Source: Candidatus Helarchaeota archaeon | Lineage (GTDB): Archaea; Asgardarchaeota; Lokiarchaeia; Helarchaeales; RDOG01 | Length of the DNA: 64,000 nt | Assembly: GCA_019058315.1 (NCBI GenBank) | Contig: JAHPZH010000007.1 | Span: forward strand, 160,001 to 224,000 | Reading direction: 5' to 3' | Shown here: piece after piece, positions 1,377 through 27,812 of the stretch | Layout of the letters: each line of letters starts with the position of its first letter | Position numbering within the stretch: the first letter of the stretch is position 1 | The notes under the pieces: model-generated | Databases searched by the model: none | The model's input: the letters and a program-made list of their open reading frames with translations, nothing else | Told to the model about the DNA's origin: nothing | Made by a program: the position numbers and the translations under genes

Positions 1377-2438
1377 TCACTCAATGACACCAGTATTTTT
1401 CGCTAAATGCTCAGCAGCATCTGCAGTAAGTCCCGAATTTATAATTGTGTACCTATCACGCATTTTATGAGCTATAGTGAGAGCTTCTATTATTTTATCA
1501 TCTTTTACTCTCAGTTCTTTCGCATTTATAGGTGCTTTTACATATTGTAAAGCTTTTTTAATTTGTTGCCAATCCCCATCATGTAAATACATCATCATTA
1601 TTGTTCCAACCCCGCATTGTTCACCATGTAATGCATATTCAGATCCTAAGAAATCTAATGCATGAGAAAATAAATGTTCACTTCCGCTTGCAGGTCTTGA
1701 AGATCCAGCCACTGAAATTGCGATACTTGAAGTTATTAAAGCTTCAAGGACGGTTCTTACACTTTCCTCTGTTGGTTTTATCTTTTCATAATTTTGTAAA
1801 AGCATCTCTGCAGATTGTTGTGACAACATTGCGGCAAAATGCCCATAATATTCATTTTTAATCCTGTGGGCAAATTTCCAATCTAATACAGCGGTTAGAT
1901 TTGCTAAAATATCACCAACTCCCGCAGTTAATAACCTAAACGGTGCTTTCGAGATAATTTCTGTATCAGCTAGAATTGCAATTGGTGTTTGTGCAACTAC
2001 TGTGTGTTCTTGTTCCATACCTTTAACAGAAGCAAATGGGGACGCAATTCCATCATGTGATAATGTGGTTGGAACACTAATAAATGGGAGACCTAATTCA
2101 TTACTTGCCAATTTTGCTATATCAATGTTTTTTCCCCCTCCAACCCCTAAAACAAGATCTGGTTTAACCTCAATCATTTCATCTTGACACCAATTAACAT
2201 AACCCATATTTGCTTCTTTAACTTCCATGAAACTTACATTATATTTCTCGTCCTCTAATGTATGCATTAATCTATTCCCAGCAATTTTCAATGTGGTTGG
2301 TCCAGTTACAATAAAAATAGTTCTCTTACCGTTATGAGAATGGAAACCCAATTTTTCGCAAAGTTCCCCAATTTTATCTAATACACCATGTCCTATTATT
2401 ATTTTTGATGGTAGATTAATTTTATGTGCTGGAATCAT
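1377..2438 (-). CDS. egsA: sn-glycerol-1-phosphate dehydrogenase
   Basis: GVGGGKNIDIAK, SVPTTLSHDGIASP, SSRPASGSEHLFSHALD, LHGEQCGVG. Confidence 0.95.
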   Translation of the reverse strand: MIPAHKINLPSKIIIGHGVLDKIGELCEKLGFHSHNGKRTIFIVTGPTTLKIAGNRLMHTLEDEKYNVSFMEVKEANMGYVNWCQDEMIEVKPDLVLGVGGGKNIDIAKLASNELGLPFISVPTTLSHDGIASPFASVKGMEQEHTVVAQTPIAILADTEIISKAPFRLLTAGVGDILANLTAVLDWKFAHRIKNEYYGHFAAMLSQQSAEMLLQNYEKIKPTEESVRTVLEALITSSIAISVAGSSRPASGSEHLFSHALDFLGSEYALHGEQCGVGTIMMMYLHDGDWQQIKKALQYVKAPINAKELRVKDDKIIEALTIAHKMRDRYTIINSGLTADAAEHLAKNTGVIE

Positions 2439-2471
2439 TTTTTTCTTACTCCTTGTTAATGTTCTTTTAAA

Positions 2472-3377
2472 TCACCATGGCAAAATTATATTTCTAAATG
2501 GATTTGGATCTGGTAATAATAAACCTGGAAATCCAAGTAAAAATGAAAATAACCCAATAAACATTCCAAATTTTAATATTCTTTTAACAAAATGGGCATT
2601 TTCGGAAGAATCCGGATTTCTTAAGAGTAATATTATAGAAATAATCATAATTGAGTCCACTCCTCCTAAAGCAACAAATAAATATATTTCATTAAATAAT
2701 TTGAAGAAATATGGAAGAGGGGAAAGAATTATTGTGAATATTAAAAATAAAACTGCCAAATATGATCCGTTTTTTCTACCAAGTAAAACTGCTAATGTTT
2801 TAACGCCCTCTTCTTTATCTCCAACATAATCGTCAACACCTTTTGTTATTTCACGACCAATATTCATTACAAAAGCCAATAAAGCTGCCCAGAAAGAAAA
2901 TTCAATTTTATTTAATGCCGCCCCACCTAATAAGAGACAAAAAGAGGTGAGCAAACCAATTGTAATATTTCCTATAAATCCTAATTTTTTGAATTTTAAA
3001 GAATATGCAGCAATAAATACAGAACCAATTAATAAAATTAATATTGCTTGAATATTTTCAGTTAAAAAAATGATTGCATCCCCTACCACAAAAAGGGCTA
3101 TAGTTAATATAAGGGCAGTATTTCTAGATATTCTTCCTGATGGAATTGCCCGCTCTGGACAATTTATTCTATCAATTTCTACATCCTTCCAATCATTTAA
3201 AGCATGACCTGCAGAAGCAGTTAAAAATGCGGCTAGGAAGCAAATTAAAACGTTAAATAAATTCCTTTCGAGATTAAACAAGAAACCACTTGCTATGGCT
3301 CCAATCAAAACTCCAATGGCTGCTCCTATACCATTTAGAGGGCGCATAATCTGAAAAGCACCCTTTACTGCTTCCAT
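2472..3377 (-). CDS. Digeranylgeranylglyceryl phosphate synthase (UbiA family)
   Basis: MRPLN, NDWKDVEIDRINCPERAIPSG, REITKGVDDYVGDKEEG; multiple transmembrane (TM) helices; lipid gene context. Confidence 0.9.
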   Translation of the reverse strand: MEAVKGAFQIMRPLNGIGAAIGVLIGAIASGFLFNLERNLFNVLICFLAAFLTASAGHALNDWKDVEIDRINCPERAIPSGRISRNTALILTIALFVVGDAIIFLTENIQAILILLIGSVFIAAYSLKFKKLGFIGNITIGLLTSFCLLLGGAALNKIEFSFWAALLAFVMNIGREITKGVDDYVGDKEEGVKTLAVLLGRKNGSYLAVLFLIFTIILSPLPYFFKLFNEIYLFVALGGVDSIMIISIILLLRNPDSSENAHFVKRILKFGMFIGLFSFLLGFPGLLLPDPNPFRNIILPW

Positions 3378-11659: not shown

Positions 11660-12052
11660 TTAGATATTGGAATTATATAAAGTTACTTTGCTTGCCATTA
11701 TTTCTATAAAATCTCCAACTTTTATCAAATCTGTTTTTTTCACATCCAGCATTATTGAACTTGCAGGTGATAAGGATATTACTATTACCCCATCATCATA
11801 AATTTGATCAATTTTACCATGTATTATTAAATTATTGCGTTGGTAATCAATTAAAGGTTTATTTTCTGTAATTTTATTAATATTTTCTCCCCATAGTAAT
11901 TTATCATTTATATTAAATTCAACAAAATATTTAGATCCTACATTTGGTGTTTCTCCATCCCACTTGGCTGCCCCAGAGCCAAATTTGGTTTCAAACCATA
12001 TCAAGATCCTATCTTTACTTCTTTCAATAATACGCTTAACTATTATTTTCAT
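11660..12052 (-). CDS. Hypothetical beta-rich protein
   Basis: 130 aa ORF co-directional with neighbours; no family recognised. Confidence 0.6.
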   Translation of the reverse strand: MKIIVKRIIERSKDRILIWFETKFGSGAAKWDGETPNVGSKYFVEFNINDKLLWGENINKITENKPLIDYQRNNLIIHGKIDQIYDDGVIVISLSPASSIMLDVKKTDLIKVGDFIEIMASKVTLYNSNI

Positions 12053-12080
12053 ATATTTTTCACTATTTTTTCGATTTTAA

Positions 12081-12413
12081 CTAATATAACTCCCTTCTCT
12101 TTTTTTCAAATTTTTTAATAGTATCTACCTTCCGAATAATGTTTGGTCTCCATTGGGTTGCTTTTACAATTGTTCTTAGCATAACACCATTTTTACCAAT
12201 AAGTAGACCTGGTTTTCTGGCTTCAATTATTACTTCACCAAGAGCTTCATCAAACTCAATGCTTGTAATTCCTGCATTTGGTGGGCTTAATTCAATAATC
12301 TTTTTTTCAGCTTGTTCAGGCGGTAATCTATGCTTGAAATCTGAGTATTTATCTATTCTTTTTCTAATTTTTTTAGACATTTCTTTAATTTGTTTTTTAA
12401 AATCCTCTTCCAA
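12081..12413 (-). CDS. Stand-alone KH domain resembling the N-terminal KH region of aCPSF1/FttA
   Basis: IKEMSKKIRKRI...LPPEQAEKKIIEL.PPNAGITSIEFDEALGEVIIEARKPGLLIGKNG..LR.I.K.TQWRP follows the aCPSF1 KH pattern; no MBL/beta-CASP part. Confidence 0.8.
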   Translation of the reverse strand: MEEDFKKQIKEMSKKIRKRIDKYSDFKHRLPPEQAEKKIIELSPPNAGITSIEFDEALGEVIIEARKPGLLIGKNGVMLRTIVKATQWRPNIIRKVDTIKKFEKKRRELY

Positions 12414-12538
12414 TTTTATTTTCCTCGTTATTGTATTTTCATATAAGAATTAGTTAAAATGATAATTAATATCTTCCAAATTAGTAATTCTCTATATTTT
12501 TCTTTATAAAAATATTAATACAAAATAAATTATTACAT

Positions 12539-13072
12539 TTAGACATTTGCTGCATTTAATAAAGAATGGTATAAGAGCTTTGAAATAGAATTCAAATAAA
12601 TTTCAAATTCATCTTTAAATATTTTAAATAAATTTCTATAAGGATGTTCTAATATTTCTGGATTACTTTTAACCCAATTGCATTTTGGATCAAGTACAAA
12701 GTAATATTCTTTTTTTGAAATTTGCTTAAAATTTCTTATTGGAAATATTTTACACATCACAGGTTTATTCTCATGAATAGAACAACCTGAATTCTCACTA
12801 TAAAAAGGGCAAGGGAGGTTTAAAAAGTAATGAAATGTAAATTCTTCTTTGTTTAAAGGATTTACTATTTTTTCTTTGGTAATTTTTAATTTTAAATTAC
12901 GTTTTCTTGCCTCTAACTCTAAAAAGTTCTTCTCATCATTAGTTATTTGTAATTTCTTAAAAAGAGAAACACAACATCTATTTTTACATTGCTTGCATGA
13001 ATATGAATTTGAATTATTATTAATCGAATGTAAATTAATTTCAGTGAAATAAGTCTTGAAATTATTTAAAAT
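12539..13072 (-). CDS. YkgJ-family (CxxCxxxCC) Zn/Fe-S cluster protein
   Basis: The frame of track ORF 12539..12760 is open up to 13075 and encodes SCKQCKNRCC...PCPFYSENSGCSIHENKPVMCKIFP. No ATG/GTG/TTG upstream of the motif; ATT at 13072 or TTA at 13069 follows SD GGAGCTGA. Confidence 0.75.
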   Translation of the reverse strand: MLNNFKTYFTEINLHSINNNSNSYSCKQCKNRCCVSLFKKLQITNDEKNFLELEARKRNLKLKITKEKIVNPLNKEEFTFHYFLNLPCPFYSENSGCSIHENKPVMCKIFPIRNFKQISKKEYYFVLDPKCNWVKSNPEILEHPYRNLFKIFKDEFEIYLNSISKLLYHSLLNAANV

Positions 13073-13168
13073 TGGTCAGCTCCAACCGATGAAATTTTTT
13101 ATAACTATTATTTGATTATTATAATAAAATTGTTTAAAATTTGTGAATTAAAAATTTAAGTGAAATGA

Positions 13169-13507
13169 TTGCATTTATTTGTATACGGGACTTTAACAGA
13201 CGAGGTATTTCTCCACCGCGTAACTAAAAGACCATTCGGACACTTTCAAATTATTGAAGCCAAACTACCCGAATATAAAAGAGATTCATCAATAAAAATA
13301 TCAAAGTGTGACCATGATTCAGCAGTTAATGGCCGATTAATTTTAAATCTAGATAAAAATGATCTAGATCTTCTGGATTATTACGAAAGTTGTAATACTA
13401 ATAATGCTGAGTCAGATCAAAATAATTGGTATAACCGGAAAATAGTCTCTGTAATTACAAGTGATAATAAAACGTTTAATGCATACGTATACATTCCCAA
13501 TTTTTAG
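13169..13507 (+). CDS. Gamma-glutamylcyclotransferase (AIG2-like) family protein
   Basis: LFVYGTL, VNGRLI, LDLLDYYE, YNRKIVSV, AYVY. Confidence 0.88.
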   Translation: MHLFVYGTLTDEVFLHRVTKRPFGHFQIIEAKLPEYKRDSSIKISKCDHDSAVNGRLILNLDKNDLDLLDYYESCNTNNAESDQNNWYNRKIVSVITSDNKTFNAYVYIPNF

Positions 13508-13534
13508 AGTTTATAACATTTTGGTGATTAATTA

Positions 13535-14860
13535 ATGTCCATCTTCAAAAAAAAACCACTTGGCAAATGTCCTCGCTGCGGAAATGTAACACATGCAAGA
13601 TGGATTAAATTAGGTAGAGAAATTAAATGTGAAAATTGCGATTTTAAATTAAGGGTTATTGTAAAAAGAAAACAAAATTTAGAGGATAAAAAGAAGCCTT
13701 TGGGGATTGTTGATACAATAGAAGAAGCTTATGGAATTTCTATGGGTATTGAAATTGAAACTTATACCATTAGAATTTCAGCTGGAAAATATTCGATTGG
13801 ATATGACGATGTAGTATACCCTAAAGAGCAAGTTTTTGAAGATGGAGAAATATTTACCCAAGATCTTACCATTGGTTCTGAATTTAATAGTCCAGTTTTT
13901 TATCAACTTTATAATGCGTATTTTCGCTTGAAAGCCAGTCTAAGAAAATATAATGTATTCCAAGATAAAACTGAAGAAAATGTGGAAAAACGAATCTGTT
14001 TTATGGGAACATGGTTGGATGCGCCGGCGGCAACACACTTTCATATTGGATTTGGTAAAGATGGAATAGGCGAACAAGATGCGGAGTATATTGCGCAGCA
14101 TGTTCATAGTCATTTACCTTTTTTGATAGCATTATCCGCAAATTCACCAATTTTAAATAATGAAATTACTCCAATTGCCTCGAATAGGTTAAAAGAATTT
14201 CCATATTGTAATCCCATTGCTATAAAAGATTTCTTTAAAGAATACGAGAAATTAAGTGATTATCATTTTACAGAAATGAATTATAATACCTTTCCTGGAA
14301 GTGGGGAGGATACTAAACCTCCTACCCTTGAAATTAGAGTAGCTGACTCAAATATTCCCGAATATTGTATTGCTTGTCTTGCAATTATTCAAGCTATCGT
14401 ATTAAAAGCTATTAGAAAGAAAAAAGGTAAACCCGTTAAACCCCCTAACATATGTGATTATGACAATTACATTGAAGCACGAAATAATGCAATTAATGAT
14501 GGATCAAATGCAATATTATGTTGGAACAACAAACCAGCGAAAGTTCCAAAATATATTGATAAATTCTTTTATTTCTATAAAAAAGAATTAGAAGAAATCG
14601 AAATTCCACCTAAAATTTTAGATGTTTTTAAATATTTAAAATCTGGAGTTAATATGGCTGATATGATTCGGGAATCATGTTCTAAAATGAAGGAAAAAAA
14701 TCCAGCTAATTGGGAGAATGAGTTTGCTAAACAATATGTTTCAGCATTAGAACAAAATTTAGAAGGAAATGATCTCGAAAACTTCGCAGGGTATTTAGGT
14801 ATTAAACTTCCAAACATTTCCAAAACGATTTTAGGAGAAACATCATTTTATTCTCCTTAA
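13535..14860 (+). CDS. Carboxylate-amine (glutamate-cysteine ligase, GCS2-like) ligase with N-terminal zinc ribbon
   Basis: CPRC...CENC ribbon; MGIEIE, SEFNSP, THFHIG, LPFLIALSANSP, ASNRL, TLEIRVADS. Confidence 0.82.
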   Translation: MSIFKKKPLGKCPRCGNVTHARWIKLGREIKCENCDFKLRVIVKRKQNLEDKKKPLGIVDTIEEAYGISMGIEIETYTIRISAGKYSIGYDDVVYPKEQVFEDGEIFTQDLTIGSEFNSPVFYQLYNAYFRLKASLRKYNVFQDKTEENVEKRICFMGTWLDAPAATHFHIGFGKDGIGEQDAEYIAQHVHSHLPFLIALSANSPILNNEITPIASNRLKEFPYCNPIAIKDFFKEYEKLSDYHFTEMNYNTFPGSGEDTKPPTLEIRVADSNIPEYCIACLAIIQAIVLKAIRKKKGKPVKPPNICDYDNYIEARNNAINDGSNAILCWNNKPAKVPKYIDKFFYFYKKELEEIEIPPKILDVFKYLKSGVNMADMIRESCSKMKEKNPANWENEFAKQYVSALEQNLEGNDLENFAGYLGIKLPNISKTILGETSFYSP

Positions 14861-14901
14861 ATCATAACATTTTTTCCTCTAATTCTTGTTTTTCGTGTGA
14901 A

Positions 14902-15525
14902 TTATTCTTTTATGAATAAAAACGCCAGAATAAAAATCCATGACTGATAGGCATATATTGAAATCCGTTCAAATAATCCCAATAATTCAATATTATTCAT
15001 CATCAATACCGAAGTTAAGCCACCAAAACTAGCCATAATAATCAGTGTAATTATTGAATATAATCTAAATGATTTCCACTGTTTCTCACTGTAAAGACCT
15101 ATCCCAATCATTGGTATAGCTAGTACTATTAATATAATGTTTAATCCTGTGAGAATTATATGCATTGTTCCAGGGAAAGTTCCGGGCATAGGAATAGCAG
15201 TAAAAGGATCCATTGGAAAAATACTCCCCGATAATGCTGAAAATATTCCCAGAATCATAATGAATATGCCACCTAAGAATATTAATTTACTCTGCTCAAA
15301 TTTATAATATGTAATTACTCCAATTCCAAAAATAACTAACATAATTGCAGAGATAACGAAAAGCGAACTTAATAAGTAAGTATTTTTAGAACCAGCTTGA
15401 GTTAATTCACTCACCGCATTTATAATTGGACTATAGCCTTGTGTAATGATACTACCGATAATATCATTTAATAAAAATACGATGGGACCTAAAATACCAC
15501 CATAAAAGAGAAGTTTTTTATCCAT
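14902..15525 (-). CDS. DUF998-family membrane protein
   Basis: GYSPIINAVSEL, IFPMDP, GTMHIILTG, GLFERISIY; about 6 TM helices. Confidence 0.8.
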   Translation of the reverse strand: MDKKLLFYGGILGPIVFLLNDIIGSIITQGYSPIINAVSELTQAGSKNTYLLSSLFVISAIMLVIFGIGVITYYKFEQSKLIFLGGIFIMILGIFSALSGSIFPMDPFTAIPMPGTFPGTMHIILTGLNIILIVLAIPMIGIGLYSEKQWKSFRLYSIITLIIMASFGGLTSVLMMNNIELLGLFERISIYAYQSWIFILAFLFIKE

Positions 15526-15670
15526 GTCTTTATCATCACCGAATTATTATTGCAAATAATCTCGTTGCTTTATAAAATCAATGTTTTTATATCTTATTAA
15601 AAATATAATTAGATAATTTTATTTATATTTATTGATAATTATTGATAGTACTATTTTTGGTGGAGATATT

Positions 15671-17950
15671 TTGAAAAAAAGTAGCGATCAGACTAAAGAA
15701 ACGATATTAACCATGCTTTCAAACCCACTACGCTCACAAGTTCTGAAATTTCTAAGTCAACAAAGCCCATTATCATTTACGGATATAATGGAAAAATTAA
15801 AAATGGATCCCTCCACAGATGCTGGTAAATTTGGATACCATCTTAGAGCTTTGAAAGATACCCAACTAATCAGTGGTGGATCCGAATCGGGTTATAGGTT
15901 AACCAAAATTGGAGAAAAAGTAGTTGAGTTTTTATGGACTTTAGGTGATTTGATAAAATCAGAAGCTCTTGGAGAAATCCAGGTTAGAACATCAAGATAT
16001 TCAGTTGAAAAATTTGACAGAAATAAGATAGCCCTAGCTCTACAAAAAGAAGCAAATATTCCTAGAGATCTTGCTGAAGATATTTCAAAAGAAGCTGAAG
16101 AACGATTGATTAATTCAAAAATTAAATATTTTACCGCACCCTTGATACGTGAATTTGTTAATTTTATCCTTTTAGAAAGAGGTTTAGAAAATTATCGACA
16201 TGCTCTTACAAGATTGGGTCTTCCACCATATGATGTTAAAGAATTAATAAAATCACAAAAGAGCATTTCAAATCCAACATTTATAAAAAGAATAGCAGGT
16301 GATGCTATTCTGGAACAATATTTATTATTAAATGTTCTGGACCATAAAATAGCCGATGCTCATTTAAGTGGTGATATTTTCATTCCAAATGCTAATTATT
16401 TCATCTTAAGACCAAATTCTGTACAACATGATGCACGAATTTTTTTCAGTGAAGGTCTTCCAAGTATGGGCTCTCTAATTGCAATAAGCCCTCCAAAGAG
16501 CTTTAGAACCGCTTTAGGCATTATAGCAAAAATTTTTAACATTTCAAATAGCGCAAGCGACCAATCCTTTGATCATTTTAATGTATTTTTAGCCCCTTTT
16601 ATAAAAAATTTATCACAAGACGATATAAAGAAAAATATTCGAATTTTTTTGGAAGATATCGGCTATCAATTCGATTCCTCAGGAATAAATATTAATTTAG
16701 AGTTTTTAATACCTTCATATCTTCAAGATAGTCCAGCAGTTGGTCCCGATGGTAAGGTTAATGGTATTTATGGGGATTATTTGGAGGAAACACAATTATT
16801 ATTATCGTTACTATTAGATGTGCTAATAGAAGGAGATATCAAAGGGCGTCCCTTTCTTTTACCAAATCAAATTCTTAAAATTCGTCCTGAGGTATTAGCT
16901 CGTGATGAATATAAACCATTATTAATGAAAGTCCATGAGTTAATTCTAAAATTTGGAACACCTTTTTTAGTGAATGCAACGAAAGATTGGCAAACTAAAA
17001 ACGTTAATTTAACAGGAGGTCTAGATCGACTCGCGGCTACATGGAAAGAAGTAGAAGTAGATACTTTACGGACTGGAAATTTAGATTGGGTCATTATTAA
17101 TCTCCCTAGAATTGCTTATGAATCGGAAAATGACGATGATAAATTTTTTGATTTATTAGATACTAGATTAGATTTATCTTATAATGCTTTAAAGCAAAAA
17201 AAAGAAATAATTGATATAAGAATGAATGAAGATAGACTACTACCTTTCTTATCTGCTTCGGTAAAGGGAGAGCCTTATTTTCGAATTGAAAATGCCTCTT
17301 TTTCTATTAGCTATCTAGGTTTACCCCAAGCAGTTAAAATACATACGAATTCAAAAGTATCTGATCATACAGGTTTTAATTTCGCAAAACGAATATTGGT
17401 ATATTTAAATAAATTTTCAAAGGAATCTAGTGAGAAATCAGGTCTTAGGTTTACAATAAAGCAATCAATTTCAAATGGATGGGCCTTCAAACTGGCGGAA
17501 TTGGATAGAGAGTATAATATCTGGAGAAAACGAAAAATAGATGCTAAGCATCAATTCGACTTTTATACTGCAGAAAATTTATTCTCCTCAACCTCTATTC
17601 CGATGAAAAAAAGAATTCAATTAGAAGGAGAATTTCAACAGTATCTTAAAGGCGGTCATATGTCTTTAATCTCAATTGATAGTCCATCATTTGATAGTAA
17701 AAATCTATTGGAGATTACTCGTGATATTTGTAATTCTTCTATAGGAATATTTGGATACGTTCATAACCTTACTTATTGCTCTTCATGTGGTATTAGTTTA
17801 AACGGAATTCATGAAAAATGCCTTAAATGCAGCTCTGCAGGGACTAATATTAACCATTATAGCCGTCAAGTTGGACCATATAAAATTATTTCTCCACAGA
17901 ATAATATTATTATGAATAATATTAAAAATCGGCAAATTTATTCGGCATAA
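15671..17950 (+). CDS. nrdD: HTH + ATP-cone + class III ribonucleotide reductase (NrdD)-like fusion, catalytically degenerate
   Basis: ArsR-like HTH (LSNPLRSQVLKFL...GKFGYHLRAL); ATP-cone (VRTSRYSVEKFDRNKI...TAPLIREFVN); NrdD motifs ADAHLSGDIFI, LRTGNL, INLPRIA; C-terminal CxxC-CxxC. TTG start at 15671 follows SD GGTGGAGA (track start 15632). Confidence 0.85.
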   Translation: MKKSSDQTKETILTMLSNPLRSQVLKFLSQQSPLSFTDIMEKLKMDPSTDAGKFGYHLRALKDTQLISGGSESGYRLTKIGEKVVEFLWTLGDLIKSEALGEIQVRTSRYSVEKFDRNKIALALQKEANIPRDLAEDISKEAEERLINSKIKYFTAPLIREFVNFILLERGLENYRHALTRLGLPPYDVKELIKSQKSISNPTFIKRIAGDAILEQYLLLNVLDHKIADAHLSGDIFIPNANYFILRPNSVQHDARIFFSEGLPSMGSLIAISPPKSFRTALGIIAKIFNISNSASDQSFDHFNVFLAPFIKNLSQDDIKKNIRIFLEDIGYQFDSSGININLEFLIPSYLQDSPAVGPDGKVNGIYGDYLEETQLLLSLLLDVLIEGDIKGRPFLLPNQILKIRPEVLARDEYKPLLMKVHELILKFGTPFLVNATKDWQTKNVNLTGGLDRLAATWKEVEVDTLRTGNLDWVIINLPRIAYESENDDDKFFDLLDTRLDLSYNALKQKKEIIDIRMNEDRLLPFLSASVKGEPYFRIENASFSISYLGLPQAVKIHTNSKVSDHTGFNFAKRILVYLNKFSKESSEKSGLRFTIKQSISNGWAFKLAELDREYNIWRKRKIDAKHQFDFYTAENLFSSTSIPMKKRIQLEGEFQQYLKGGHMSLISIDSPSFDSKNLLEITRDICNSSIGIFGYVHNLTYCSSCGISLNGIHEKCLKCSSAGTNINHYSRQVGPYKIISPQNNIIMNNIKNRQIYSA

Positions 17951-17978
17951 ATGGTTAAAAAAGGTTCAAGGTTAGGAT

Positions 17979-18320
17979 TTAAGTTAAATCTAATTTAATA
18001 AATTCATATTCTCTGATAAATTTACGTTGTGTAATATAGCTATATGCCTCGATGACCATTTTATTTTCATAAATTCTTCCATCATATTCAACTATACCAC
18101 TAATACTAGTCGTTGTAAATTTTATCCGAATACTACTTAAAATGAAATTACCTTTACCTACTGATTTAACAGAATCTTTAACAAACCATTTTTTCATTGA
18201 TTGAGGAGATGTTTTCGAATAAGCGGTAATTACCGTCCCATCTTCAAAAAATCTAATATAATGACTATAATCCTCCAATTTACTCCTATAAATTCCATCG
18301 AATCTTAACAAATTGCCCAA
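17979..18320 (-). CDS. Hypothetical protein
   Basis: 113 aa beta-rich ORF (LRFDGIYRS...HYIRFFEDGTVI) filling an intergenic gap. Confidence 0.6.
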   Translation of the reverse strand: MGNLLRFDGIYRSKLEDYSHYIRFFEDGTVITAYSKTSPQSMKKWFVKDSVKSVGKGNFILSSIRIKFTTTSISGIVEYDGRIYENKMVIEAYSYITQRKFIREYEFIKLDLT

Positions 18321-18490
18321 CTCTAATTTTAGATTGAACTAAATAAGAGTCAAAATCAATAAAATATTGCATTTCCAAATTTTAAAAAATTTATATTTTA
18401 ATTATTACTTAACGTAAAATAGTAAATGAAGAAATTTGGGGAGTTAAAATGGAAAAATGGTTACTTCAGTTATTTAAAAGGATGATTTAA

Positions 18491-19702
18491 TTGACTTATC
18501 GAAATAGAAGACATAGAATGTATTTAGAATTCGGAGGACCAAAAATTGCCAAAAAATTTGAACTTGCTCAAGTACGTGGAATGGATGAAATTGAAAATGG
18601 AAAAGTTTCAATAATTGGTTCAGATTTAAGAGATTTGGAACAAGGAAAATCGTATCCAATTGGAATTCTTATTGAAATTGCTGGAAAAGAAGTTAAAAAA
18701 GAGTTAGAACCGATTTTTGAGTGTAGAATTAAGGATTTCACAGATAGTATTGGTAATATGTTTTATGTATATCATCGATCAGATATTTGGTTTAGATTCT
18801 CAACATTTGTCTATGAAAGAGGATTCAACTCTCTCAAAGTGTGGGGTGAAATGTTGATTGCTTCTTATCAAAGGGAATACGAAAAAATTATTGAAAAAAT
18901 CCAAATAACTTTTTTTACTGAAGAGAATAAAGTTAATGAATGGCATGAAAAAGCCACTAAGATTTATTGTTCAAGAGATGACCAAGTAAAATCTCTTTCA
19001 GACGAGAGAGTTGATACTTTTTTTGGGTGTGCTTTGTGTAATTATATTGTTCCAAATCATTTTTGTATAATCACACCAGACAGTTGTGGTCTATGCGGTT
19101 CAATAAACTGGATTAATGCAAAAGCAAGTTTTGAGCTGGATCCAAAGGGTCCAATTTTCTTCATCAGAAAGGGACAAAGTATAGATACTATTAGTGGTGA
19201 ATGGAGCGGAATTAATGAGATCATTAAGGCAAGAACCCTGGGTCAAATTGAAAGAATTCATCTTTACACGATTCTAAGCCCATTTAACCATACTAGTTGT
19301 CATTGCTTAGAGGCAGTCGCCTTTTATATACCTGAGGTTGATGGGATAGGAATTTTAAATAGAAATTTTAAAGTGCCCGCTATTAATGGATTGCCATTTT
19401 CAACTATGTCAAGTGTAATTAGGAAAGGAGAACAAAGTTATGGTTTTGTTGGAACAGCAATAGGACAAATGCGCTCCCCAAAATTTTTACAAGCTGACGG
19501 TGGATGGGATAGAATTGTTTGGATAACTAATCATGTAAAAGATCGCATTAAAGATGATATATCGATTGAAATAGTTAATAAAATCGCAACTGAATCGGAT
19601 GTAACTAATTTAATGGAATTAAAAGATTTCCTTATATTAAATAATCATCCCATAGTTAAAAAATGGACAAAAGAAATATATAATTCTAATTTTGAGGAGT
19701 AA
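18491..19702 (+). CDS. cdhC: Divergent acetyl-CoA synthase (ACDS beta subunit) paralog
   Basis: EFGGPK, GCALC...HFCIITPD...LCGSINW, HTSCHCLEAVAFYIPEVDG, NGLPFSTM, SPKFLQADGGW; TTG after SD AGGATGA. Confidence 0.85.
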   Translation: MTYRNRRHRMYLEFGGPKIAKKFELAQVRGMDEIENGKVSIIGSDLRDLEQGKSYPIGILIEIAGKEVKKELEPIFECRIKDFTDSIGNMFYVYHRSDIWFRFSTFVYERGFNSLKVWGEMLIASYQREYEKIIEKIQITFFTEENKVNEWHEKATKIYCSRDDQVKSLSDERVDTFFGCALCNYIVPNHFCIITPDSCGLCGSINWINAKASFELDPKGPIFFIRKGQSIDTISGEWSGINEIIKARTLGQIERIHLYTILSPFNHTSCHCLEAVAFYIPEVDGIGILNRNFKVPAINGLPFSTMSSVIRKGEQSYGFVGTAIGQMRSPKFLQADGGWDRIVWITNHVKDRIKDDISIEIVNKIATESDVTNLMELKDFLILNNHPIVKKWTKEIYNSNFEE

Positions 19703-19770
19703 ATGTTAACGGGATGGTTGTTCATAAGAAACTAGATACTTAAATTCGATAAATTGTTGAATTAATTATT

Positions 19771-20388
19771 GTGATTTTAGATGATGAATTGCTTGTTCCA
19801 CGTAAATTATATATAGATGCCGGAGTTCACTTTGGAACTGCCAAAAAAACTTCAAATATGGAACCATATATTTATAAAACTATTAATACGGGCAAAAACC
19901 AAATTAATCTTATTGATATTCGAAAAACAGCTGCCAGAATTCGAGTAGCAGCAAAGTTTATTTCTAGATACCACCCAAATAAAGTTCTAGTAACTTCAAA
20001 GCGAAGATATAGTCATCAAGCAATAAAAAAATTTTCAGAAATAATTGGTACAAAATATATAAAGGGGGAAATTAAACCGGGAACTTTAACAAATTATTCA
20101 TCTAAGCATTATATTGAAACGGATTTATTAATTATAATTGATCCTAAAAAAGATGTTGATGCGATAAATGAATCTTCTATTTCCAAAATACCAATAATAT
20201 GTCTGTCTAATACAGATAATAACTTCATAAATGTCGATTTGGTGATTCCGGCAAATAATAGAGGAAGAAAAGCATTAGCATTAATTTTTTGGATTTTAAC
20301 AAGGCAAGTTCTTTTGGAAAGTGGTGAAATAAAATTTTTTAGCGAATTTAATTTTCCAATTTCCGACTTCCTTTCCCCCTTACATTAA
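19771..20388 (+). CDS. rps2: 30S ribosomal protein uS2, divergent copy
   Basis: AGVHFGT, RIRVAAKFI, PGTLTN, VDLVIPANNRGRKALALIFWIL. Confidence 0.85.
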   Translation: MILDDELLVPRKLYIDAGVHFGTAKKTSNMEPYIYKTINTGKNQINLIDIRKTAARIRVAAKFISRYHPNKVLVTSKRRYSHQAIKKFSEIIGTKYIKGEIKPGTLTNYSSKHYIETDLLIIIDPKKDVDAINESSISKIPIICLSNTDNNFINVDLVIPANNRGRKALALIFWILTRQVLLESGEIKFFSEFNFPISDFLSPLH

Positions 20389-20472
20389 ATTTTATAAATA
20401 TAGTTCATATTAAGTAGAAAATCTAAATATTTGAATTAAAAAATGATTAAAGGAATATAAAAAAGGGATTTT

Positions 20473-20886
20473 ATGGTCAAGTCAAAGAAAAATCTAGATA
20501 TTTATGGTCTCATCGTAATAGATCGTTCAGAAATGACAATAGCCACATTATCTGGTGGTAAAAAAAATATTATAAAGATAATGAGTGCAGCCAAACCATT
20601 TAAACGATTGGAGCGTTGCGAAATACAGAAAAATTATAGACCCCTTATTGAACAAGCTACACAGGAGTTCTTCATTCGTGCAGGAGAACACATTAACAAT
20701 CAATTTTTAAGTCTACAATTAAAAGGGATAATTATAGGGGGAGGTGGACCAACTAAAAAATATTTCGTAAAAGGTGATTATTTAGATAATCGTTTAAAGG
20801 AAAAAATAATTGCTATAATCGATATTGGTTATTCTGGTGAGCAAGGTATTGACGATTTAATTAAAAAAGCCAAATTAATATTATAA
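20473..20886 (+). CDS. Stand-alone aRF1/eRF1 domain 2 (middle domain) lacking GGQ
   Basis: YGLIVIDRSE.TI, LIEQATQEFFIRAGEH, LKGIIIGGGGPTKKYF.KGDYLD.RL..KII.IIDIGYSGEQG. Confidence 0.8.
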   Translation: MVKSKKNLDIYGLIVIDRSEMTIATLSGGKKNIIKIMSAAKPFKRLERCEIQKNYRPLIEQATQEFFIRAGEHINNQFLSLQLKGIIIGGGGPTKKYFVKGDYLDNRLKEKIIAIIDIGYSGEQGIDDLIKKAKLIL

Positions 20887-21224
20887 AATGGCGATAATTA
20901 TAAATAAAGGAAGTAAATGTAAACTAGTGCGGTACTAGTCTAATAAATTTAAAAATTAATTACATTTTTTATGAGATTTTTTCTTCTATTTATTCTAAAA
21001 TATTTCAATTTCGAAAATTCGCATTTCTTGTATAAATGCTTATTAAATTCCTTAAAAAATTGTGGGGTTTTTATTATTTTTTAAAAATTCACTATTGTTT
21101 TGAATGGAAAAAGAGTTAGATTAATTAAAAAAATATCAATTTAATTAGATAAATTTATCAAAAAAAGTTTAAATAATAGAAAAACCCATTATGATTATCA
21201 AATTCAATTTAATTTTTAAAAGGT

Positions 21225-21395
21225 ATGGGATGTCTTGCGATGAATATTAGAACTTTTCCAAGATATTGGTATCATAGAAAGATTTTGAAAGCTCCAGTCG
21301 AGAAATCAGATGATATGGATCCCAAAATACAAGATATTAATCCCAAAATAGGAAAAGCTGACCCTGGCCCTACTAAAAAATCCAAATTAATCTAA
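21225..21395 (+). CDS. Putative small protein (56 aa; or 51 aa from ATG 21240)
   Basis: MGCLAMNIRTFPRYWYHRKILKAPVEKSDDMDPKIQDINPKIGKADPGPTKKSKLI; less AT-rich than its flanks; below the ORF-track cutoff. Confidence 0.45.
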   Translation: MGCLAMNIRTFPRYWYHRKILKAPVEKSDDMDPKIQDINPKIGKADPGPTKKSKLI

Positions 21396-21603
21396 AAACA
21401 ATTGAAATAATCCAAATTCATATTTAATTATATTTTTTTTAATTAATTATTTGTTATTTTAAATAAACGAATTATACTATTTCTAAAATTTTTATAAATA
21501 CCATAAATAAGAAAAAATTCTATTCTGAAATTTAAATTGAGATTATTTATTCTTTGGACTCAAAAAATTTATTTTATAACTGAATAAATAAAAATAGATT
21601 AAA

Positions 21604-22542
21604 TTGACTAAAACTTCTGAGATTTCATTTAATGATAGGGACATAATTTCAATCAAAGATTTAACTCGCGATGAAATTGAATACATTTTAGACATTGCAC
21701 TTAAAATGAAGAAATATCATGATGACCCTACTGATCTTTTAAAGGGAAAAATTCTCGCAACTCTTTTTTATGAGCCCAGTACTCGAACCCGTTTGAGTTT
21801 TACAAGTGCAATGTTAAAATTAGGAGGGGAAGTAATGGGGTTCAGCGATCCAAAGGCTTCATCTGCTGCAAAAGGTGAAAACTTATCTGATTCTATTCTT
21901 TGTATTGAAAGTTATTGTGATATTATAGTTATTCGTCATAAATTAGAAGGGAGTGCCAGATTAGCAGCTGAAGTTTCTAAAAATCCTATTATTAATGCTG
22001 GAAGTGGGACTCAGGAACATCCTACTCAAGCTTTATTAGATTTATTGACTATCAGGAACGAATTTAAATCATTAGATGGTCTAAAAATTGGAATGGTTGG
22101 GGATCTAAAATATGGTAGAACAGTAAAATCCCTCTCCTATGCACTTTCATTATATGATGTTGAATTATCATTCATCTCTCCTTCCATGTTAAGCATGAGA
22201 AAAGAAGTATTAAAGGATCTTGATGATGCTGGAATAAAATATGAAGAATTTTCTGATTTAAGTTCAGTTCTTCCCTCATTAGATGTGATTTACGCTACCC
22301 GTATACAAAAAGAACGTTTCCCCGATCCTGCGGATTATGAAAAAGTTCGAGGATCTTATAAAATAAACAAAGAGTTTTTAAATAATGCAAAAGATTCAAT
22401 GATTTTAATGCATCCTTTACCCAGAGTCGATGAAATAGCATTTGATGTTGATAAACTCCCTTGTTCTAGATATTTTATTCAACCGCTTAATGGTGTTTTA
22501 ATTAGGATGGCATTACTTGGGTTAGTATTAGGAAAAATATAA
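21604..22542 (+). CDS. pyrB: Aspartate carbamoyltransferase catalytic subunit
   Basis: FYEPSTRTRLSF, HPTQALLD, GDLKYGRTV, RIQKERF, HPLPRVDEI. Confidence 0.97.
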   Translation: MTKTSEISFNDRDIISIKDLTRDEIEYILDIALKMKKYHDDPTDLLKGKILATLFYEPSTRTRLSFTSAMLKLGGEVMGFSDPKASSAAKGENLSDSILCIESYCDIIVIRHKLEGSARLAAEVSKNPIINAGSGTQEHPTQALLDLLTIRNEFKSLDGLKIGMVGDLKYGRTVKSLSYALSLYDVELSFISPSMLSMRKEVLKDLDDAGIKYEEFSDLSSVLPSLDVIYATRIQKERFPDPADYEKVRGSYKINKEFLNNAKDSMILMHPLPRVDEIAFDVDKLPCSRYFIQPLNGVLIRMALLGLVLGKI

Positions 22543-22543
22543 A

Positions 22544-23023
22544 GTGAAAAAAATGGTAGAGAAAGAGCTTAGAGTTAGAAAAATCAAGCAAGGCACAGTT
22601 ATAGATCATATAAGCCCTGGAACTGCGTTAAGGGTTTTATCTATTCTTGGAATTATGGGAAAGGAGGGTCATATACTTTCCATTGCTATAAACGTTCCAA
22701 CGGGTAAAAATCAGAGTAACAGAAAAGATATTGTAAAAATTGAAAATAAAGAATTAGAGATTACCGATATTAATAAAATAGCTTTAATAAGTCCTCATGC
22801 TACAATAAATATAATTAGAGACTACAAAGTCGTTAGCAAAGAAAAAGTAAAACTTCCATCAGAACTTAAAGATATTATTAAATGCATTAATCCTAACTGC
22901 ATCACAAATAGTAGAGAACCGATAAAATCGCATTTTACAGTCGAAAATAAAGAACCAATATTATTAAGATGTAATTATTGTAATATTATTATGGATTTAA
23001 AGGATATTTTAAAAAATATATAA
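22544..23023 (+). CDS. pyrI: Aspartate carbamoyltransferase regulatory subunit
   Basis: GTVIDHI, KDIVKIE, CINPNCIT, LRCNYC. Confidence 0.96.
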   Translation: MKKMVEKELRVRKIKQGTVIDHISPGTALRVLSILGIMGKEGHILSIAINVPTGKNQSNRKDIVKIENKELEITDINKIALISPHATINIIRDYKVVSKEKVKLPSELKDIIKCINPNCITNSREPIKSHFTVENKEPILLRCNYCNIIMDLKDILKNI

Positions 23024-24053: not shown

Positions 24054-24992
24054 ATGCAATGTAGGGGTATAAATATCGATCCAAATATTATGAAAGAGGT
24101 CTTGAAACAAATTAATAAAGACAGAATCTCGTCTGAATTAATTTATAATATAATTAGAGATAAAGGATGGGATTTTAAAAGGAAAGAATTATATTTAATT
24201 TCAAAATTAAGAATAGAGTTTGAGGATCCAGAATTTTGGTATTATTTGGGTCTATTTTTCTTTGAAAATTATGAATTGGATAAAAGCCAAGATATATTTT
24301 TAGAAAATGCGTTATATTGCTTTAATAAACCATTTGAAAACAATAAAAATAAAGGTAAAACCATTTTATGTGATGCTTTTGATAATCCAAAAGATATTTT
24401 TTCCTTATCATATTCAGAATATATTGAATTTTTGAACGAATCTCTTGATCATTTGATTGTGATTTATAATAAACCATGCTTTTACGAAGGTTTTTCTTTA
24501 CTTGAGGTTATTCCAAAGAAACCAGAAATAGTCGAGAGGTTTGAGGTTATTATTACAGCTGAATATAATGAACTTATTCAAGATAAAGAAAAAATATTTG
24601 GTGAACGATTACGTCAAATTCAATTTGAAAATAAATTATATGGGATTTTAAAAATATATAAAAAAATACGGCTCTCTGAACTGGCAAAAAAATTAGATTG
24701 TGAACAATCCTATTTAGAAGAAACTTTAGAAAAACTTGTTTTAGAAGAAAAAATTAATGGAACCATAAGAAATCAGTTTTTAACAATTACTAAATTACCT
24801 GAAGATCAAGAAATAATACCTATTATTACAATTAAAGAAGGTCAATGTGCTATATGCAGGGAGGAAATCAAAGAAGAATCATTAACTTGCTCAAATTGCT
24901 CTTCAAAATTCCATAAAAGCTGTTTTTCAAAATGGATTGAAAAAAGCGAATTATGTCCAGTTTGTCAAAAAGAACTTGAAATATTTGAATAA
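24054..24992 (+). CDS. Helical repeat + PCI-type winged helix + RING (C4HC3) protein, putative E3 ligase
   Basis: TPR-like PEFWYYLG...ALYCF; WH YKKIRLSELAKKLDCEQSYLEETLEKLVLEEKINGTI; CAIC-x10-CSNC-x4-HKSC..KW-x6-CPVC. Confidence 0.78.
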   Translation: MQCRGINIDPNIMKEVLKQINKDRISSELIYNIIRDKGWDFKRKELYLISKLRIEFEDPEFWYYLGLFFFENYELDKSQDIFLENALYCFNKPFENNKNKGKTILCDAFDNPKDIFSLSYSEYIEFLNESLDHLIVIYNKPCFYEGFSLLEVIPKKPEIVERFEVIITAEYNELIQDKEKIFGERLRQIQFENKLYGILKIYKKIRLSELAKKLDCEQSYLEETLEKLVLEEKINGTIRNQFLTITKLPEDQEIIPIITIKEGQCAICREEIKEESLTCSNCSSKFHKSCFSKWIEKSELCPVCQKELEIFE

Positions 24993-25051
24993 TAATAAAT
25001 AAATCATATATTTTTTATTAGAAAATTAATTTAAAATAAGTTGGGAATGAT

Positions 25052-25792
25052 ATGAGCCATGATTATTGGTTAAGAAAAGGTTTAAACGAGAGTACGAGAG
25101 AAAGGAAAATTAAATGCTTTGAAAATGCAATTCGCAAATACTCAACTCACGAAATCTTTGCATTTGATGAGTTGGGTCATTGGATTGCTGGATATTTGAA
25201 ACTTAACAACATAAATAGTTTTCTGACTTATAGATTTTTTGGAAGTGTCCATGATAGACTTGGAAATACAAGAAAAGCCATCGAATATTATAAAAAAGCA
25301 ATAGATATCGACCCTAATGATGAGTTTATCTGGCATAGAATCGCGGAAAACTATAGAAACTTGTTAAATTACGAAAAAATAATAGAATGTTATGAAAATT
25401 CAATAAAAATTGATCCAAATATAAAATTTAAATGGATTAATTTAGGAGAAGCTTATTTCAATTTAAATAAATATAAGAAAGCAATTGAATGTTATCAAAA
25501 AGCTTTAGCTATAGAAGAACATCATCTCGAACAAATTGATTTAATTAATGCATGGGAAGGTTTAGGAAATGCACATAAAGAGTTAAAAAATTATGAAAAA
25601 GCTATAAAATGTTATGAAAAAGTAATAAAACTAGATTACAATTATGATTTGGCTTGGGAAAATATGGGATTGATTTATGAGGAATTAAAAAATTATCCAA
25701 AAGCAATTGAATGTTATAAAAATGCATTAAAAATTAACAAATTTAATGAAATTGCTCAAGAACGATTAGAAAAGTGTGAGTCAAAGGAGTGA
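25052..25792 (+). CDS. Tetratricopeptide repeat protein
   Basis: About 5 repeats of W..LG..Y..L..Y.KAI.CY.KA..IDP. Confidence 0.92.
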   Translation: MSHDYWLRKGLNESTRERKIKCFENAIRKYSTHEIFAFDELGHWIAGYLKLNNINSFLTYRFFGSVHDRLGNTRKAIEYYKKAIDIDPNDEFIWHRIAENYRNLLNYEKIIECYENSIKIDPNIKFKWINLGEAYFNLNKYKKAIECYQKALAIEEHHLEQIDLINAWEGLGNAHKELKNYEKAIKCYEKVIKLDYNYDLAWENMGLIYEELKNYPKAIECYKNALKINKFNEIAQERLEKCESKE

Positions 25793-25799
25793 ATAAAAT

Positions 25800-27812
25800 A
25801 TTTCTAATATACAAGAACCAGATGTAGAAAAATTAGGTCTCTCCAAAGATATTGATGGTTTAATTAAAGCTTTAGAATATCCAAAATGGTATATTAGAAA
25901 AGATGCTGCAAAATGGCTTGGAAAATTAAAGGAATTAAAAACAGCAAAATTATTAATACAACTACTCAAGGACGAAGATTGTTATGTACGAGAGAATGCA
26001 GAGGATTCTCTTATAAGTATGGGTAGTGATGTGGTTGAACTCCTCATCCCTTATCTTAAAGACAAAAATAATAGTATTAAGGGAAATGTAGCAAGTATTC
26101 TTGGTCGTATTGGAGATAAGAGAGCAATTAAACCCCTTATGCCGCTTTTAAATGATGATGACGAAATTGTTCAAATCCGAGTATCTTATGCTCTTAAGAA
26201 TCTTGACTGGAAACCTACCGATAAACAATTAGAAATGAGTTACGAATTTGCTAAAGGTGATTGGAAAGATCCTCATACAATGGACAAAGGTCTACAAAAA
26301 ATTGAAGAAATAATAAACTCTCCTGATTTATTACCAAAACCACCTATAAAACCACCAATCAAACCAGTTCCTAAATCAAAACCTCCTATTCCATCTTTAA
26401 AAGGAAAACCATTAGAAATTATTCTTCCATATTTAAATGATAATGATGAAAATATCCGTATTGAAGCAATAAAAGCTCTTAAACATGTAAAAGACGATAA
26501 AAAAGTGAATCTTCTCATCCATTCTTTCGAAGATAAAGATGAAGATGTCAGATATGAGGCAGTTAAATCTTTAAGTAAGATAAAAAATCTTAAAGCGGTA
26601 GATTCTATAGCTCAACTTTTATGGGACGATTCCTATTTAGTTCAAAAAAAGGCATTAGAAGTCTTAAGAAAAATTGGAAATGCAAACGCGGTAGATCCTC
26701 TGATTAAAGCTCTAAAAGATAAAGTCATTTATACTGAAGCTTTTGAAACTATTGAAAAAATTGGAAAATCTGCTATTACACCTCTTATCAAATTCCTTAG
26801 GGATGAAGATTATTGGATTCGAAAAAACACAGCAGAAACTCTTAATAAACTTGGATGGAAAGCAAAGAATGAAACCGAAAAAGCTTATTATTTAATTGCA
26901 ATTGATGACTCTAAAGGGTGGGAAGAGATAGTAAAATTAGGAGATTTTGCCCTAGAACCCCTCATTAAATCATTAAGTTATAAAAAGTTTCCTAGATTTG
27001 GAGATATTATTTTTCCGGATGATAGAGCAATTGCCCTTTCTGAATTAGGAGAGATAGCATTAGAGCCTCTTATAAAGGCACTAAAGGAAGGAGATTCTAA
27101 TACAAGATGGGGTGCAGCTGAGGCTTTAACGTTTATAGGAGATGTAAGGGCTCTAGAACCCCTTGCCCAAGCTTTAAATGATGAAAATTCAGATGTGAGA
27201 CATAGCGCAATTAGTGCTTTTAGTCATTATTCAGATAAAGAAGTAATAGATGTTTATATAAAGTATAATATGTTAAAGCATAAAGATATTCGAGTCAGAT
27301 TTAGTGCAATGAGAGATATAGGTTGGAGAGAAGATTATCGATTAGTGGAACCTCTACTCCAAGCATTAAAAGAAGATAACTATAGAATTATTGATTCAGC
27401 AGTTCATTCTTTATCAAAGTTAAAAGAAAAAAGAGCAGTAGAACCTCTTATAAAATTACTTAAACATAAAGACTCGATGATTATAAGAACAGCAGCTGAA
27501 GGTCTTGGAGATATAGGAGATGTAAGAGCAGTAGAACCTCTCATAGGGATGCTTAATAATGAAGATTGGCAAATTTTAAGAGAAATAATCAATGCGCTTG
27601 GTAAAATAAGAGATAAAAAAGCAGTAGAGCCCCTTATCCAACTCTTAAATGATAAGGATAAATTTATTAGATTGGAAGCTGTAGAAGCTCTTACAAATAT
27701 TGGTGACTTTACAGCAATTGATCCGATTTATGAGACCATACAAAAAGAAAAAGTTAATTATATAGCAGAAGCTATGCAAAAAGCCTTGGAAGAGTTAAGA
27801 AAAAAAATTTAA
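25800..27812 (+). CDS. HEAT/PBS-lyase repeat protein
   Basis: Many AVEPLI..L.D....VR..A..ALG.IGD repeats; Pro-rich linker. The frame is open upstream of track start 26019 to ATT at 25800 (after SD GGAGTGA) and encodes further repeats. Confidence 0.9.
   Translation: MSNIQEPDVEKLGLSKDIDGLIKALEYPKWYIRKDAAKWLGKLKELKTAKLLIQLLKDEDCYVRENAEDSLISMGSDVVELLIPYLKDKNNSIKGNVASILGRIGDKRAIKPLMPLLNDDDEIVQIRVSYALKNLDWKPTDKQLEMSYEFAKGDWKDPHTMDKGLQKIEEIINSPDLLPKPPIKPPIKPVPKSKPPIPSLKGKPLEIILPYLNDNDENIRIEAIKALKHVKDDKKVNLLIHSFEDKDEDVRYEAVKSLSKIKNLKAVDSIAQLLWDDSYLVQKKALEVLRKIGNANAVDPLIKALKDKVIYTEAFETIEKIGKSAITPLIKFLRDEDYWIRKNTAETLNKLGWKAKNETEKAYYLIAIDDSKGWEEIVKLGDFALEPLIKSLSYKKFPRFGDIIFPDDRAIALSELGEIALEPLIKALKEGDSNTRWGAAEALTFIGDVRALEPLAQALNDENSDVRHSAISAFSHYSDKEVIDVYIKYNMLKHKDIRVRFSAMRDIGWREDYRLVEPLLQALKEDNYRIIDSAVHSLSKLKEKRAVEPLIKLLKHKDSMIIRTAAEGLGDIGDVRAVEPLIGMLNNEDWQILREIINALGKIRDKKAVEPLIQLLNDKDKFIRLEAVEALTNIGDFTAIDPIYETIQKEKVNYIAEAMQKALEELRKKI

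Follow-up and report, generated by a model that had tools for sequence, protein, structure and literature searches.

The closest described relatives of the gene treated here are class III ribonucleotide reductases (RNRs) of the NrdD type (double-Cys MCCR subtype; PDB 8P23, 4COI, 9D3X) and NrdR, in which nucleotide sensing goes through an ATP-cone (PMC9110341). In every RNR characterised so far the finger-loop cysteine is described as essential (PMC9531940), and the cysteine on strand beta-A is retained in 92.6% of class III enzymes (PMC9669993). Both have been lost from NrdD*, a protein encoded in a 64,000-nucleotide stretch of a Candidatus Helarchaeota genome (the window; C7:160001-224000, on contig C7 of assembly GCA_019058315.1). 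The genome comes from deep sediment, and the closest named homologs mostly carry a Helarchaeota label, which fits an Asgard archaeon of the Helarchaeales. A preliminary description of the window had grouped NrdD* with four other altered homologs of essential proteins in a single island of about 9 kb; the open reading frames (ORFs), coordinates and identities of all five were confirmed by Pfam and profile matches. Asterisks denote altered copies in the window (NrdD*, ACS-beta*, uS2*), while aRF1-M and the KH piece are fragments (Table 1). Intact canonical copies of all five are present elsewhere in the genome: aCPSF1 on contig C10, nrdD on C6 and C7, ACS-beta on C5, uS2 on C6 and aRF1 on C5. 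Two unrelated things are likely to overlap at this locus, a regulatory pseudo-enzyme, NrdD*, and four young accessory genes derived from the lineage's own genes, and of these the ancient RNR that is dead and fused to a helix-turn-helix (HTH) is the most solid new result.

NrdD* consists of a winged-helix domain (residues ~25-100; DUF7347/ArsR-like in Pfam), an ATP-cone (~116-188), a class III RNR barrel and a C-terminal Zn ribbon, the first two of which the preliminary description had overlooked. The cone scores 25.7 bits in Pfam against a cut-off of 25.8; it is called in most homologs, and residues V118-R119-T120-S121, E126, F128, K132 and I133 are conserved in the family. The structural model (pLDDT 87.5) shows a class III RNR fold with a 10-stranded barrel (Foldseek E 1e-27), and identity to the two nrdD products of the genome is 31% and 24%. 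The earlier view that the enzyme is dead was upheld, as both catalytic cysteines are lost: the finger loop reads GGLDRL in place of MGCR/MCCR, which carries the thiyl cysteine, and the beta-A cysteine is Ser. Among 120 listed homologs, over which all family counts were made, CR is kept in the finger loop of 10, with some Bathyarchaeia-like members retaining GCR, the beta-A cysteine is found in none, and the Zn cysteines are each kept in 113-114. The glycyl-radical motif R-[IV]-T-G-Y reads RQVGPY, the glycine being present (as in 72 homologs) in a degenerate context. Conservation within the family is highest in the HTH and cone, the HTH motif being among the most invariant parts, and the HTH-plus-cone region occurs in ~38 of 41 class-level genomes. 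Full-length homologs are found in Freyarchaeia/Jordarchaeia, Njordarchaeia, Atabeyarchaeia, Bathyarchaeia and Methanomethylicia, and dN/dS (the ratio of nonsynonymous to synonymous divergence) is 0.06-0.07, comparable to that of backbone enzymes. NrdD* is not a displaced copy, as had been proposed, but an ancient backbone pseudo-enzyme at its usual conserved position. Databases label it as RNR, and no description of an HTH-fused dead NrdD was found in the searchable literature, outside which many subscription papers lie.

NrdD* would have originated from a class III RNR that gave up radical chemistry while retaining its ATP-cone, barrel and Zn ribbon, and that acquired a winged helix. It shares its fold, cone and ribbon with NrdD and differs in the lost cysteines, the degenerate glycyl loop and the added HTH. 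Like NrdR, it joins an ATP-cone to a putative DNA-binding domain and is genetically linked to nrd genes; unlike NrdR, which has an N-terminal Zn-ribbon and cone in ~150 aa, it carries a winged helix and the whole dead barrel, is about five times larger, and has no match to the NrdR model. NrdR itself (TIGR00244) was not found in this genome, and we know of no account of how archaea that lack NrdR control their RNR genes. At seven of 10 distant loci with usable flanks, NrdD* lies within one gene of pyrB and/or nrdD, and at two distant loci it is the first gene in the order NrdD*-glutaredoxin-nrdD. It is quite likely that NrdD* is a transcription factor that responds to nucleotides and acts on RNR and/or pyrimidine genes, with DNA binding, sensing and targets predicted from domain content and neighbourhood; most likely it would sense ATP/dATP in the manner of NrdR and control nrdH-nrdD and/or pyrBI. 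One observation tells against this role: the orientation of NrdD* relative to pyrB varies, and their adjacency may therefore reflect inherited synteny rather than regulation. Retention of the whole barrel in a class III RNR fold, of the loop glycine in many homologs and of GCR in some would also suit an inactive subunit that regulates NrdD or aspartate transcarbamoylase by protein contact, or an RNR still active through other chemistry. We consider this unlikely, given the invariance of the HTH motif and the absence of the cysteine on which characterised RNRs depend.

The four young genes stand apart from NrdD* in both age and position. Close relatives (87% and 74% DNA identity) possess the backbone order GGACT - GCS2 - NrdD* - 51-aa gene - pyrBI without the KH gene, the DUF998 gene or the ACS-beta*/uS2*/aRF1-M block, and empty sites within the conserved backbone were seen on five contigs of metagenome-assembled genomes (MAGs). 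The site of the main insertion, directly behind NrdD*, is empty in GCA_048887025 and in three more distant MAGs. The supposed island therefore resolves into three separate insertions into a conserved backbone. The KH piece and the ACS-beta*/uS2*/aRF1-M block entered it recently and as separate events, and most close relatives lack them at these sites. The last three genes are consecutive and co-directional with gaps below 90 bp, as described earlier (68 and 84 bp). The NrdD*-ORF113, ORF113-ACS, ACS-uS2 and right-hand junctions are spanned, at ~96-98% identity, by contigs of runs X2/X3, which come from an independent study; the block is therefore not an assembly artefact.

ACS-beta*, a derived acetyl-CoA synthase (ACS) beta subunit, is 55% identical to the canonical 479-aa protein. 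It resembles CdhC, the beta subunit of acetyl-CoA decarbonylase/synthase (PDB 9C0S), in passing the TIGR00316 cut-off and in possessing the five A-cluster cysteines (C180, C183, C202, C270 and C272, invariant in ACS-beta*), and it carries the Helarchaeales-type TILSP[YF]NHTSC motif. It differs in lying outside the canonical cdh operon, which is separate, in the loss of the distal-Ni Cys-Gly-Cys (TSCHC for TSCGC; CHC in three orthologs, CNC in one), in an altered GGG loop and middle-domain surface, in the loss of the acidic C-terminal tail, in a beta-barrel fusion in one relative, and in a dN/dS four to nine times higher (0.15-0.37 vs 0.04). The altered motif noted earlier is real. All five ligands are kept, and any "disarmed" status therefore rests on other changes. 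Orthologs show 88, 79 and 64% identity. No second full-length ACS-beta was found in 20 genomes of other genera, and a scan of JGI metagenomes with ACS-beta* returned only canonical ~50% matches among the best 80. The called ORFs lack internal stops, as stated before, although an in-frame TAA (18488-18490) separates the ACS-beta* start, TTG 18491, from an upstream ATG at 18449 with a strong GGGGAG resembling a ribosome-binding site (RBS). A third, more divergent ACS-beta (TSCRYF, 36%) lies at C5:642230-643585 and was not found in 20 relatives; its neighbours are probably two GcvH-like and HdrBC-like genes.

ORF113, upstream of ACS-beta*, is predicted to form an eight-stranded beta-barrel closest to bacterial hypothetical proteins and to the FBXO9/Hrt3 C-terminal domain, consistent with a weak FBO_C match in Pfam (E=0.0024). 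Its homolog is fused in frame to ACS-beta* in a relative's Logan contig, and its dN/dS is 0.14. With the queries used, it had no match in GTDB contigs or in 120 genomes of the class.

uS2* is 54% identical to canonical uS2 and is a full-length match above the TIGR01012 equivalog cut-off (216.6 vs 211.5 bits). It is sister to the genome's own uS2 on a long branch (ultrafast bootstrap, UFBoot, 84), has a dN/dS of 0.155, and its ortholog (92%) adjoins ACS-beta* in GCA_048887025. No second uS2 was found in 40 genomes of other genera, nor any viral contig with a uS2* relative.

No counterparts of the two fragments were found elsewhere. aRF1-M spans the middle (M) domain of release factor 1 (Pfam eRF1_2 2-129/133), with the N and C domains missing and, as reported before, no GGQ, which is replaced by RCE. 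It is 67% identical to canonical aRF1 over 129 aa (78.7% in DNA over 225 nt) and sister to it on a long branch (UFBoot 89), and its divergence is focused on the GGQ minidomain, where 5 of 19 residues are identical against 82 of 110 elsewhere (permutation p 0.005). The KH piece comprises the end of the first KH and the second KH of aCPSF1 (638 aa; 58% identical over 91 aa), to which it is sister, also on a long branch (UFBoot 73), without the metallo-beta-lactamase/beta-CASP nuclease. It begins at parent residue ~43-46, a position inside the first KH domain in known aCPSF1 structures. The earlier statement that the truncations follow domain boundaries thus holds for aRF1-M and fails for the KH piece. 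A protein search with aRF1-M returned only itself, no close ortholog of the KH piece was found among 1.84 billion representatives, and neither lone gene occurs in 40 genomes of other genera. No significant remnants of the missing aRF1 or aCPSF1 domains were detected in the flanks. The probability of remaining stop-free under neutrality is at most 0.015 for aRF1-M and at most 0.06, a less clear result, for the KH piece. Origin, insertion and selection of these two are shown only indirectly. Beyond aRF1 and aRF1-M, a single further relative was found in the genome, a three-domain eRF1-family protein, probably pelota, at 57298-58380 (+) of the window.

On alignments and trees, the inserts appear to derive from the lineage's own genes, in support of the capture hotspot proposed in the preliminary description, and other captures stand beside the same cargo in two relatives. 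The dN/dS of ACS-beta*, uS2* and ORF113 is significantly below 1 (p(w=1) <=1e-4), and dN/dS is below 1 wherever it could be measured; the ACS-beta* and uS2* orthologs are under relaxed purifying selection (0.15-0.37). In GCA_048887025 the ACS-beta*/uS2* pair occurs at another site, near smc and beside an Spt5-KOW fusion. Its synonymous divergence (dS) between the two genomes is 0.16 and 0.26, whereas most of the backbone gives 0.46-0.82 and smc, which shares the contig with the pair, 0.62; this indicates that the pair was exchanged after the species split and moves between congeners. In GCA_013375355, ACS-beta* lies upstream of the 51-aa gene, in the stretch before pyrB, where a HEAT gene and a CDC48-N/PCI fusion are close by. 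Co-occurrence in relatives, raised earlier, thus extends to the pair in one relative and not to the remaining genes. The fusions, both in variable slots, join a domain without assigned family to an Spt5-like KOW (GCA_048887025 contig, 1740-2216) and a CDC48 N-domain to a PCI-like domain (GCA_013375355 contig, 2313-3107). GCA_048887025 is labelled Hodarchaeota by its source; at 87-91% DNA identity to this genome, the label looks wrong. Taken together, segments of core genes have been copied and placed at the ends of genes; they have stayed open and have changed position, and the mobile self-derived cassette is real and selected.

Table 1. Features of the locus, in window coordinates.
Feature	Position	Strand	Basis or remark
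aCPSF1 KH fragment (KH piece)	12081..12413	-	parent residues ~43-136; in insertion 12053-12558
Insertion holding KH piece, ~500 bp	12053-12558		separate from main block
Backbone GGACT and GCS2 genes	13169..14860	+	Pfam; conserved upstream of NrdD* in congeners
Third insertion	14863-15614		contains DUF998 gene
DUF998 membrane protein, unrelated cargo	14902..15525	-	Pfam; comparison with relatives
NrdD*	15632..17950	+	Pfam, homolog family, Cys census, model, dN/dS, neighbours
Main insertion, 2,988 bp	17951..20938	.	starts right after NrdD* stop codon
ORF113	17979..18320	-	model pLDDT 83, fold matches
Leader, 13 codons in frame	18449..18490	+	behind RBS-like GGGGAG; ends TAA directly before ACS-beta* TTG
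ACS-beta* (derived acetyl-CoA synthase beta)	18491..19702	+	alignments, orthologs, dN/dS
uS2*, full-length drifted uS2 in-paralog	19771..20388	+	tree, ortholog, dN/dS
aRF1-M, lone middle domain of release factor 1	20473..20886	+	Pfam, alignment
Backbone 51-aa gene and pyrB-pyrI	21240..23023	+	directly after NrdD* in relatives lacking insertion

Similar captures recur in the lineage, involving Spt5, CDC48 and actin. A probable membrane protein (C5:1246015-1247118) ends in a 311-nt copy of spt5 (residues 53-156, 87% DNA identity), and this similarity, together with a start in mid-domain, indicates that capture is ongoing and ignores domain limits. A 1,650-aa thioester (CVEQ) protein resembling alpha-2-macroglobulin (A2M; C2:93982-98934) carries an insert that corresponds to actin residues 7-67 and shares 67% identity with the actin of this genome. 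The insert sits at the bait position, directly ahead of the part that aligns to human A2M residue 730. The remaining actin (68-375, 43%) forms a separate gene three genes downstream (C2:90962-91888), beyond a vWA gene and its paralog. An A2M-like protein with a matching actin insert is also encoded by a distant Asgard genome. By its sequence, the actin-carrying protein is a candidate integrated bait. We also observed a lone Spt5-NGN gene (C5:41377-41643) and second copies, drifted towards AT, of two other genes, one adenylate-kinase-like (in tandem; C1:76800-77435) and one for a thermosome subunit (C10:149555-151237).

The mechanism suggested by these comparisons is that segments of the lineage's own housekeeping genes would be copied into intergenic slots of the conserved backbone, where cargo may turn over quickly and be exchanged between congeners. 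Archaeal integron cassette arrays and clusters of attC sites lacking integron integrases (CALINs; PMC9668308) likewise hold short co-directional ORFs, are mobile among relatives and are Asgard-enriched; the block differs in its self-gene cargo, in gaps without attC core pairs and in the lack of a detected IntI. We found no integron or transposon signature. IntI was not found in the genome (94% complete; CALINs lack IntI anyway), and a scan limited to sequence pattern and folding saw no RYYYAAC..GTTRRRY pair in the gaps, which fold weakly. There was no integrase near the insertion site, no target-site duplication at 17951-20938 and no repeated intergenic element, and a sigma-70 promoter scan, a model not suited to archaea, was at background level. 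Retro-copying of the captured segments is possible. The only reverse transcriptase found in the genome (462 aa; C3:1195142-1198179) lies directly behind a SWIM-zinc-finger gene.

Selection would keep reading frame and fold while releasing catalytic or partner surfaces, and the young copies are therefore probably translated, non-catalytic binding modules. Integrated decoys and baits are known from plant NLR integrated domains and from alpha-2-macroglobulin bait regions. The young copies resemble them as duplicated host proteins with the fold kept and activity lost; they differ in that each stands alone, with neither a receptor nor an effector linked to it and with no known pathogen target. A role as bait, decoy or competitor in biological conflict, favoured because change has fallen on catalytic surfaces and spared the fold, is possible and is put forward tentatively. 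Several observations weigh against such a picture of selected, self-derived modules. No PADLOC family of known anti-phage defence matches the cargo. The 5' end of ACS-beta* may be decaying here, where the leader TAA is a possible nonsense break, and is truncated in GCA_048887025. A grouping of the ACS-beta* clade with own-lineage copies has an approximately unbiased test p of 0.38, which does not fix its exact attachment. The dN/dS values come from a purpose-written script and few sequence pairs, and branch-specific estimates against order-level relatives, unstable because dS is saturated at that distance, were not relied on.

An equally live and quite possible explanation is that the inserts are ordinary short-lived paralogs of a lineage with a high rate of duplication and domain shuffling, some with unrelated minor roles and no common decoy logic; ACS-beta* could be an Fe-S/Ni sensor or carrier acting with ORF113, and uS2* an alternative ribosomal subunit. 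Relative to congeners, there are five or six insertions within ~25 kb here, mostly of unrelated cargo, and by simple criteria ~36 drifted or fragment copies occur genome-wide, most of them not core machinery. The mid-domain start of the Spt5 capture, the full set of metal ligands in ACS-beta* and its fusion to ORF113 fit this explanation, as does the reported richness of Asgard genomes in duplications (PMC13247210). Less easily accommodated are the three consecutive core-derived genes (by chance ~0.002 among 36 candidates, with criteria set after seeing the locus) and the core-derived fusions that recur beside ACS-beta*/uS2* cargo in two relatives.

Neutrally decaying pseudogenes are an improbable source of the inserts. 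Their amino-acid composition has drifted AT-ward, GC content at first codon positions being ~0.1 lower in three of four; 24-33% of otherwise invariant sites are changed in uS2*, ACS-beta* and aRF1-M; ACS-beta* has 5' breaks; and the KH piece and aRF1-M are singletons. The dN/dS of ACS-beta*, uS2* and ORF113, the low chance of remaining stop-free and the non-uniform divergence argue otherwise. More improbable still, and largely refuted as a set, is the proposed group of five dominant-negative genes that would act jointly as a dormancy switch to halt termination, translation, dNTP supply and carbon fixation. Each of the five is missing catalytic or partner parts and has nevertheless stayed open, and three are co-directional with short gaps; however, the parts differ greatly in age and are never together elsewhere, NrdD* being ancient and independent and aRF1-M and the KH piece having been found in no other genome, the insertions are three, and the KH piece lies on the other strand, 3 kb away. 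An assembly chimera, contaminant DNA or provirus-borne host mimics, suggested by the 6.6% contamination of this MAG (5.79 Mb, 12 contigs) and by poor coverage of the stretch in the presumed source run, are scarcely credible given GC at the genome average (~30%), the bridged junctions, orthologs in other assemblies, and the lack of a viral uS2* relative or nearby integrase.

Several neighbouring genes were also recorded. The 51-aa gene (21240-21392, +) lies between NrdD* and pyrB in all congeners examined; it has no Pfam match and is below the 60-aa ORF cut-off. Next to the KH insertion, a CxxCxxCC (PF03692-like) gene at 12539-12994 (-) is 78% identical to that of a congener over 144 aa and has no ATG/GTG/TTG at the expected start. 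A 130-aa ORF without family at 11660-12052 (-) has a copy in one congener (68%, dN/dS 0.17), is absent in more distant ones, and shares a variable slot with the KH gene. This slot may vary within the species, because the sequence of two other strains differs left of 12596. Downstream of pyrBI, RING(+PCI), TPR and HEAT-repeat genes occupy 24054-27812; the RING gene is fast-diverging and the HEAT slot is variable among congeners.

In conclusion, NrdD* provides a concrete, expressible regulator candidate across Asgard archaea, Bathyarchaeia and Methanomethylicia that is mis-annotated as an active RNR. A wider scheme can be outlined, although we hold it to be doubtful as a whole: archaea without NrdR may have converted an entire class III RNR into a nucleotide sensor that binds DNA and regulates RNR/pyrimidine genes, and independently the Helarchaeales may keep a mobile pool of disarmed self-derived copies of essential proteins. 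Such copies would serve as baits or decoys for viruses, toxins or proteases and thereby be the prokaryotic equivalent of integrated decoys, with the actin-baited A2M as the clearest case. Copies of marker genes such as uS2*, which passes an equivalog cut-off, can inflate contamination scores and disturb marker-gene phylogenies. The young cassette shows core genes undergoing duplication, exchange and domain capture, and does so in the archaea most closely related to eukaryotes.

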